A DNA stretch of 18,561 nucleotides from a virus. Lineage: Duplodnaviria > Heunggongvirae > Uroviricota > Caudoviricetes. Location: IMG/VR virus record IMGVR_UViG_2671180846_000018; one strand, written 5' to 3'. Shown piece after piece: positions 1-3,000 of this stretch; within the stretch, counting starts at the first letter, position 1, and each line of letters starts with the position of its first letter. The position numbers are program-made.

Positions 1-3000
1 TCATCATCCAGGTAGTTATCATCGTAGGGTTCTGCCGTCATCTCGCCCGGCGTCAGATCCTTTACCTGTGCCAGTCGCTGCCAGTTATCGTCTGACAACG
101 GGTTTGCATAGGCATCACCCTGACCGTTATAAACCCACAGGGTGGTACCGGCACCTTTTACCGGCTCAAGGGGATTTGGTGTTGGCATATCGTCCTCACA
201 TCTCGTATGTAATGGAATAAGTCAAATCAGCAGAACTCCATAACGCCATATCGTCATCACGACGATACTCATAGCCCTGCGTAACCATCGTNNNNNNNNN
301 NNNNNNNNNNNNNNNNNNNNNNNNNNNNNNNNNNNNNNNNNNNNNNNTGAGATAAACAGCAATTGCCGGAAAATCCGCCTCATCAAAAACAGCGGGGCGA
401 CCATCAAACAGCGTCGCCCCGTGTTCATGCTGCTCGAGTGCATCCAGCACTGCAGCACGGATATCAGTATGTTTCATCGCTTTATCACAATCCTTAGTTG
501 TTGTTTCAACGCATAGCCCAGTTCTTTTGGCAGACGTTCTCGCCGGATACGGTTAACGTTCTCATCAAAAGCCTGCTTCAGTGGGGCCGCCATCGGAATT
601 TTAACCACCTGAATGGGAAGACGATTACGCTTTTTCCTTCCTTTATCGTCATTGCCCTTCGCATACCGGGCTTCTGGCAAACGTTGCATAACATGCCAGC
701 GCCCATTATTTAATCGCTGGATGAATGCCCGCTGATAACGATGCTGACCGGCTTTAAGTATGCTGTTCGGACGATGACCAAGCATCCTGATCCCCAGCTT
801 AATAGCAGGGAGATCACCGCGGTTAACGATAATTCTGGCATTCGGATTTCTGACCGTCGCCCGTTTCAGTCTGGACCGTTCCTTTACCAGTTTCCGGCTC
901 ACCCTGGTCTCCCGGGCAACCTGTGATGAAGACTGATTAATCGCCGTTGTAGCCACGCGGTTAATAGCCATTGCTGAAGCCGACGGAATGGCGTTTTTAC
1001 GAACCCGGCTCAGATTTTCAATCGCCTGATCAAGCCCTTTTATCGCCATAATTCACCCTGCGTTTATCGTCGCCGGTTAACTGCGGGTGGTTGCCCACGG
1101 TTCAGCCAGAGATAACAACTGCCCCCGTCATCCGGAGAAACACGATCCACCCAGAACGTCTCACCATTAATGGTCAACGTGTCACCACGCCGCACGGCAC
1201 GAACCGTATCCGTCCGCACAAATAATGACGGGCTGCTTCCTTCAATACGGATCCCACTACTGGCAAACCCCAGCGACTCCGGATCGTCAAAAACCCCCTG
1301 AACTTCGCCGCCACGCTGTGCACCGGAGGTGAACTGCGCACTGATGCCCATCACTTCAACAATCGTACTGTCCACCCCGGCAAGGGCGGCATCAAAGGCA
1401 TTCTGAAAATCACGCATAAACAGCCATTCCACCATCAACGTGTGTTTTTGCATCTGAGGACATAATCAGAATCACCCGACCAACATCCGCAAGCTCAACG
1501 GATTCCCCCGTTTCACCATCAACGCCACAGAGATGGAGGCAGGTCAGAACTCTGATGCGCGTTAACGCGCCGGATGTTTCCTCACGAACATCATGAGCCG
1601 CGTTTTCCCTCTCCCGGATATCCATATTCATAACCTGTACATCATCGCCGGATGACTGCATTTCCTCTTCCCATTCTGCCACCCGCTGCGCTATCTCTGC
1701 GGCACTCCCGGATATATCCGGCTCACGCCCCAGAATCAGGGCCAGTTCATCAAGCCGTTTCAGATTTTGCTCTTTCGTTGCCATATCATCCCCCTGTGAA
1801 AAAAGACACGGGGGCATTTCGCCCCCGCTCACGGATTATTTCACCTGTACCACCACAAACTCATCCGGGTCCGGCAACACCATCAGCGGCGCGGACTGCG
1901 TCATGGTAAATTCACGGGCGGGATCCCCTACCGTCAGCCAGTGTTTCGGATAACGGGAAGAGGCCACCACAATGGCCAGATCGCCGTAATACCCTTTGAA
2001 GGACACCACCGCGCCCAGGTCTTTCACCGCTGTTTCGAGTTGCGAATTAGAGCCGCGACGGGTATCCAGTTTTTCGCGGAACAATTTAAAGCCATTCAGC
2101 AGACGCCAGACGGTACCGTCCATAATGGCAATATTCACAAGACCGCTGGCCTGGTCGCAGTAGAGGTCAAGATCATGTGTAGGATCGAACGTGTCACGAT
2201 CCTGTTTTGACCACTCCTTACCACTACCCTGAGTGATGTTATTCTTCGTCGACCTGCCAAAATCGACCTCAATTTTCTCGAACTGGTCTCCTTCCATCGT
2301 GTATTTGCCATACAGCACGGCATTCACCGCCTGCATTTCTTCCACCCGGACAATGGCGTGCTCTTCCTGTTTGAGGTTATCAGTGATGATACGCAGACGA
2401 CGGTAGGCCGGGTCGTTCAGCTGAGCCGGATCTTCACCGGGAAGACGCTCAACCGCCTGCTGGTAATTAAATTCGTGTTTCGGCTTGACGTAGCCCGGAC
2501 GTAACACGCGGGTTTCACCACCACGATGACGCAGCACTTTTCCTTCAACAACCGGGGAAACATAGGCCGCCACCGGCGTTTTTCCGGTAATTTTGTCCAG
2601 CATCACCTCTTCGGTATGGAAATTCACCGTACGGCGGAAAAACAGCTCCAGAAACAGCGCACGAAATTTCACTTTTTGTTCGGTATAACCGAGTAACTGG
2701 CGGGTCGTAAACAATCCCATAAATCAGTTCCTTTCATTCAGAAATCAGTCAGGCCACCGCGGTGGCCTGATAACGTGTTACGGCAGCGCCGCGTGACTCA
2801 GGGCACTGCCGGCAAAGGCGTTGGCCTTTTTGTGTTCATCCACACTTTCAGGCCAGCGGATTGCCTCCGTCGCAAAGGTCCCCGACTTGTAATAGGTCAG
2901 CGCCGTCTCTGTGCCTTCAAGCGGCAGTACCAGTATGCCAACCGCACTACCGGCTTTCTGTCCGTCCCAGACCACCAGTTTCCCGGTGGCCTCATCCAGC

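Follow-up and report, generated by a model that had tools for sequence, protein, structure and literature searches.

An in-frame deletion between short direct repeats in the major capsid gene of a decaying Escherichia coli O26:H11/O111:H11 prophage

Capsid gene and deletion junction

The stretch of viral DNA analyzed here (the window, 18,561 nucleotides of IMG/VR record IMGVR_UViG_2671180846_000018) carries a major capsid protein gene homologous to lambda E and phage 21 gene 7 at positions 1836 to 2720 on the minus strand, with a 144-bp in-frame internal deletion and a product of 294 aa instead of 342 aa. We consider it very likely that this is a capsid gene of the phage 21 type, shortened by a single deletion between 9-bp repeats, encoding a product that is probably nonfunctional and inherited within a decaying, effector-carrying prophage.

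The 294-aa product matches the Pfam profile PF03864 (Phage_cap_E) with 165.3 bits against a cutoff of 22.9. The match falls into two stretches, the best of which covers profile positions 1 to 240 of 329. The gene also occupies the position expected for a gpE-type major capsid protein, between the D/shp and FI genes of the head module. Both ends of the product align with lambda gpE (341 aa; HK97 fold; PF03864; PDB 7VI9 and 7SJ5), whose PDB chains are matched at an E value of 3e-115 and 54% identity. Residues 1 to 260 of the query correspond to gpE 1 to 260 and residues 252 to 293 to gpE 299 to 340, and the block equivalent to approximately lambda residues 252 to 298 is absent. This agrees with an earlier note on this DNA, made from the sequence alone, which had given 341 aa for lambda gpE and described a 294-aa product with alignable ends that skips about 47 lambda residues. 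That figure holds against lambda, but the lineage is of the phage 21 type rather than the lambda type; measured against the true parent, a phage-21-type allele of 342 aa, the deficit is 48 codons.

The extent of the loss is defined by a full-length allele of 1,029 bp in E. coli AUSMDU00014361. Aligned with it, the 885-bp window gene shows a single gap of exactly 144 bp (48 codons), and all 885 aligned columns outside the gap are identical, which confirms that the deletion is internal and in frame, as the earlier note had proposed. The peptide across the junction, ...GDLAIVVASSRYPKHWLTVGDPAREF... (...GDLAIVVASS/RYPKHW...), reads as quoted there up to and beyond GDLAIVVASS. AUSMDU00014361 holds both capsid alleles in two prophages, the full-length one at 3137 to 4165 of locus L002 (NZ_CP045827.1) and the deleted one at 1587566 of the same genome.

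The junction coincides with a short direct repeat. Phage 21 and the full-length allele both have the 9-bp sequence TGTGGTGGC (gene strand) at gene nucleotides 750 and 894 (894 to 902), 144 bp apart, and a single copy remains in the window gene, at gene nucleotides 750 to 758 (window positions 1963 to 1971, minus strand; GCCACCACA on the plus strand). This retained copy overlaps the breakpoint that had been placed at 1957 to 1968. Since the bases directly outside the repeat differ on both sides, the microhomology at the junction is exactly 9 bp. About two repeat pairs of 9 bp are expected by chance in a gene of this size, and a random deletion would have junction homology of at least 9 bp with a probability of approximately 4^-9. 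When both ends of a deletion fall exactly on a repeat pair, as here, the event is classically attributed to slipped-strand mispairing or illegitimate recombination at short direct repeats. The window gene shows each feature of such an event: flanks colinear with the parent, a perfect repeat bounding the lost segment, and one copy left. In this it resembles the deletions between short direct repeats known for E. coli genes, with no feature that distinguishes it from them. Both copies of the repeat are read in the same phase, as Val-Val-Ala, and no selection is therefore required to keep the product in frame. A reading of the repeat as a Chi site (GCTGGTGG) was rejected, the repeat being TGTGGTGGC.

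The longest direct repeat of the gene is an 11-bp sequence, GGACGGTACCG, at nucleotides 600 and 780, 180 bp apart. A separate allele of 282 aa (proteins P0046 and P0047) has lost 180 bp (60 aa) exactly at this repeat, and its junction was verified at the DNA level; both repeat pairs behind deletion alleles, 144 and 180 bp apart, are thus in phase. One copy of the 282-aa allele lies at 6001 to 6849 of locus L009 (GCA_031645055.1), in a prophage whose terminase reading frame has no internal stop. Further in-frame deletion alleles of the capsid gene, missing 13, 22, 26, or 29 aa, occur sporadically in E. coli. The proteins with separate in-frame deletions in other E. coli prophages are P0046/P0047, P0010/P0033, P0034, P0044, and P0058.

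The closest phages carry the gene at full length. Phage 21 gene 7 (1,029 bp, 342 aa) has the 9-bp repeat pair at the same positions as the parent of the window allele, and phage 21 and its relatives ev017, 4A7, D2, 1W, and 3W share the gene order Nu1-A-W-B-C/Nu3-shp(D)-7(E)-FI-FII-Z-U. These six phages are 96.6 to 96.8% identical to the window at the DNA level (phage 21 itself, 96.8%) across FI, the capsid gene, and the decoration gene, a segment of 1,345 bp in the phages versus 1,201 bp in the window. All 19 phage records that cover at least 80% of this DNA query span the full 1,345 bp, and none of the deposited phage records with matching DNA carries the deletion; codons 251 to 298, absent from the window allele, are present in all of these phage alleles. 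Among the matches listed from a collection of 5.8 billion proteins, the majority of full-coverage homologs measure 341 to 344 aa. A lineage in which functional E homologs naturally have about 294 residues with the same junction, the finding that the earlier note had named as contrary to its reading, is not what these records describe.

Lost block and predicted structural effect

The deleted residues 251 to 298 (VVAKTSYVAEDGTEKRYLPEGSLVLGNTAAEGIRCYGAIQDAQALSEG) form a conserved part of the protein. In an alignment of 30 full-length homologs, reaching down to 60% identity, 10 columns of the block are invariant (V252, P269, N277, G282, R284, Y286, G287, I289, D291, and G298) and seven more are nearly so. 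An AlphaFold2 model of a full-length sibling (P0002) reached a pLDDT of 71.5 and a pTM of 0.73 and superposes on the crystal structure of lambda gpE (7SJ5) with a TM score of 0.88. In this model, the block holds strands 256 to 258, 264 to 266, 272 to 276, 283 to 286, and 288 to 290, part of strand 248 to 253, and a helix at 292 to 296, with pLDDT values of 75 to 90 through residue 290 and 55 for residues 291 to 300. Modeled with the same alignment, the 294-aa form reached a pLDDT of 40.3 and a pTM of 0.26 and lost all A-domain strands, a drop that is suggestive only, AlphaFold2 confidence being an unvalidated measure of destabilization caused by a deletion. The structure prediction that the earlier note had proposed as a check thus points to the loss of about five beta-strands and a short helix and to a collapse of model confidence.

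The order of elements in the full-length model runs from the spine helix (104 to 137) and the A-domain helices through the elements of the lost block to the C-terminal strands of the P domain. Because the lost elements lie between the A-domain helices and the P-domain strands, they probably form much of the A-domain beta-sheet; judged from secondary-structure order and HK97-fold topology, residues 251 to 298 most likely correspond to the beta-sheet half of the axial (A) domain and the link back to the P domain. The HK97 fold is defined with a multistranded beta-sheet in the A domain (PMC5701804). The 294-aa form lacks this complete fold, and it is a truncated derivative of a gpE family member rather than an intact member. 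The literature searched gave a general description of the fold and the phenotype of one substitution, W308A, and contained no residue ranges for the gpE domains. Lambda gpE carrying W308A is soluble and assembly deficient (PMC11674207; PDB 7SJ5). The equivalent Trp is kept in the window protein, 10 residues after the junction, and the assembly defect of W308A therefore indicates that this region is important for assembly. The N-arm, E-loop, spine helix, and C terminus are retained in the 294-aa form. On these structural grounds, the product is most likely unable to fold or to form procapsids.

Head module, prophage decay, and distribution

The capsid gene lies in a head module in which Nu1, W, B, C/Nu3, D/shp, FI, FII, and Z are intact. 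The head decoration protein gene (lambda D/phage 21 shp homolog; 2778 to 3125, minus strand) stands immediately upstream of it and the gene for DNA-packaging protein FI (1410 to 1784, minus strand) immediately downstream. Farther upstream are the capsid protease/scaffold gene (lambda C/Nu3 homolog, an S49 peptidase of 501 aa; 3162 to 4667, minus strand) and the portal protein gene (lambda B homolog, 530 aa; 4657 to 6249, minus strand). The gene for the terminase large subunit (lambda A homolog; 6436 to 8364, minus strand) is a pseudogene. Its codon 570 of 642 is TGA (6655 to 6657, minus strand), where phage 21 has TGG (Trp), and this nonsense codon cuts 73 residues from the C terminus.

E. coli O26:H11 strain 11368 harbors a lambdoid prophage that matches the leftmost 9 kb of the window and is identical to it over window positions 348 to 5430. 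Its cargo includes nleA and an nleG-family effector gene, J is interrupted by an ISEc22 insertion, and the annotation of the terminase large subunit records an "internal stop." This prophage recurs in O111:H11 strain 88-19539, where the terminase annotation and the ISEc22 insertion in J are the same and IS activity has removed further DNA from the early region. The interruption of J by ISEc22, an IS66-family element, was seen in these sibling genomes and lies outside the window. At the matching loci of both strains, the capsid protein is identical to the window product (RefSeq WP_000522643.1). RefSeq/PGAP annotates it as "major capsid protein" (L001, 20137 to 21021; L011, 19894 to 20778) with no pseudogene or partial flag, despite the 48 internal residues missing.

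The prophage thus bears lesions in genes essential for virion production, namely, the terminase TGA and the capsid deletion, with the interrupted J in 11368 and 88-19539, as is typical of defective (cryptic) prophages. The nonsense codon in the window and the interrupted J of the siblings lend independent support to the defective prophage that had been suspected from the capsid gene. Prophage pools of enterohemorrhagic E. coli (EHEC) contain many defects in head formation and packaging, and sibling prophages can complement these in trans (Asadulghani et al. 2009, PMC2669165). The window prophage resembles the defective lambdoid pool of O157 Sakai (Sp1 to Sp18; PMC2669165), which likewise combines type III secretion effector cargo with frameshifts, deletions, and IS insertions in head and packaging genes, but it belongs to the O26:H11/O111:H11 lineage. 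No description of this particular repeat-mediated in-frame capsid deletion was found in the literature searched, and a paper on the O26 mobilome (PMC5592225) does not mention the capsid lesion.

Of 5,426 complete E. coli genomes, 117 contain the exact 49-nucleotide capsid junction, each as a single chromosomal copy; most are O26:H11, and O111:H11 is represented as well. Approximately 1,559 genomes carry this type of capsid gene. Four IMG/VR contigs contain the junction as well, and a 40-nucleotide junction scan of the GTDB representative genomes gave no match. The 49-mer around the terminase TGA was found in 88 of the 5,426 genomes. In every genome that appears in both listings (E2865, OY754853, 2015C-4944, 06_3288, and 2009C_3689), the terminase TGA and the capsid junction are 4,689 bp apart. 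The two counts, 117 and 88, tentatively suggest that the capsid deletion preceded the terminase stop. Collectively, the distribution agrees with a single deletion in an H11 ancestor that was then passed on vertically while the prophage went on eroding; we infer this single origin from two fully examined genomes (11368 and 88-19539) and from the identity of the 49-mers.

The window as a whole is a hybrid of two O26 prophages. Its left part (1 to 9056) is the head module of the nleA prophage, located at about 3.05 to 3.1 Mb in E2865 and 11368, while its right part (10644 to 18561) is 100% identical to the prophage at the argU/DLP12 site, at about 0.62 Mb in E2865. The right part contains an S/holin gene, an ompC-like porin gene, quuD, rusA, ybcN, a HEPN gene, and a P22AR-domain gene. 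The switch between the two prophages falls within the join region at 8996 to 10650, in a ylcI-iss-rzpD segment common to both. None of the 5,426 complete E. coli genomes matches the full 18.5 kb over at least 80% as a contiguous stretch, and the hybrid arrangement is absent from them; the four IMG/VR contigs with the capsid junction are too short to span the join. The hybrid could have arisen through genuine recombination or inversion involving the two prophages, or it could be a chimera of the assembly. Five runs of N (50 to 75 nucleotides), apparently masked, lie at 292 to 347, 9057 to 9131, 9363 to 9412, 10590 to 10643, and 18273 to 18322; the first is inside the tail terminator gene U and is the source of the poly-X tract in the translated product. 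The 53 differences from O26:H11 strain 11368 all cluster in the portal-terminase stretch (5431 to 8993), a patchiness that suggests recombination with a sibling prophage. The AUSMDU00014361 prophage with the full-length capsid gene shares nine of these variant positions (5431 to 5617).

Competing explanations and meaning of the deletion

The history that we favor would begin with a full-length gene of the phage 21 type in the nleA/nleG lambdoid prophage of the O26:H11/O111:H11 lineage. A single deletion between the two in-phase copies of TGTGGTGGC, by slipped-strand mispairing or RecA-independent illegitimate recombination, would have removed 144 bp, leaving one repeat copy and an open frame. 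With residues 251 to 298 gone, folding and procapsid assembly would most likely have been lost. The event probably took place once, to judge from the genomes examined, and would since have been inherited with a prophage that is itself decaying through the nonsense codon in terminase A and, outside the window, the ISEc22 insertion in J, while its effector genes remain as cargo. If DNA of this prophage is packaged at all, another prophage would have to provide the head proteins in trans. It is conceivable that in some strains a full-length allele like that of the AUSMDU00014361 prophage provides such complementation or serves to repair the gene by conversion.

The open reading frame, its presence in 117 genomes, and its unflagged RefSeq annotation would also be expected if the 294-aa form were a natural and functional short capsid variant of the phage lineage. 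We regard this as highly improbable. No phage record has the 294-aa form, and most of the full-coverage homologs among the matches listed have 341 to 344 aa; the shortened protein lacks ten invariant positions and about five core strands, with a collapse of model confidence; and every locus examined belongs to a prophage that also has the terminase nonsense codon. A sequencing or assembly artifact, or a mosaic junction with a different capsid lineage, deserves a thought in a window that is itself a hybrid of two prophages joined farther right in a shared segment. That join, at roughly 9000 to 10600, is about 7 kb away from the capsid gene. Both readings were rejected, with practically no probability left to them, because one full-length allele matches both flanks at 100% identity and the same junction recurs in 117 independently assembled complete genomes and four IMG/VR contigs.

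The truncated protein might also have been kept for a new role, either as a dominant-negative subunit that co-assembles into heads of superinfecting or coresident phages of the phage 21 type and poisons them, or through selection for the in-frame state against downstream polarity. Consistent with this, the N-arm, E-loop, spine helix, and C terminus are retained, the frame is intact across the 117 genomes, and in at least one strain the 294-aa allele coexists with a full-length allele that matches it at 100% in both flanks. The deleted alleles are, however, essentially identical, leaving no time for selection to show. Both repeat pairs are in phase and would by default yield in-frame products, and the several in-frame deletion alleles of differing extent across E. 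coli look like decay rather than a designed truncation. The terminase of the prophage itself is dead, and we hold a new role to be very unlikely. The narrower proposal, that truncated capsid protein made from the late operon interferes in a dominant-negative manner with head assembly of superinfecting or coresident phages of the phage 21 type, has nothing that favors it, and we give it next to no credence; if true, it would mean that a decayed structural gene had been co-opted for interference between prophages.

A single repeat-mediated deletion in a decaying prophage is thus the reading that we retain, and the capsid deletion would represent ordinary prophage decay, a specific and apparently undescribed case of a very well-known process that leaves current understanding unchallenged. 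It cautions that annotations of "major capsid protein" can hide internally deleted genes; completeness tools that check for the presence of a capsid gene alone would score this effector-carrying prophage as possessing an intact head gene. The 49-mer at the junction offers a compact marker for the prophage of the O26:H11/O111:H11 lineage and, together with the terminase TGA, could help to establish, on a phylogeny of strains, the sequence in which decay proceeded. With each of its two longest direct repeats having yielded a natural in-frame deletion allele, the capsid gene provides a tidy example of repeat-driven prophage erosion.
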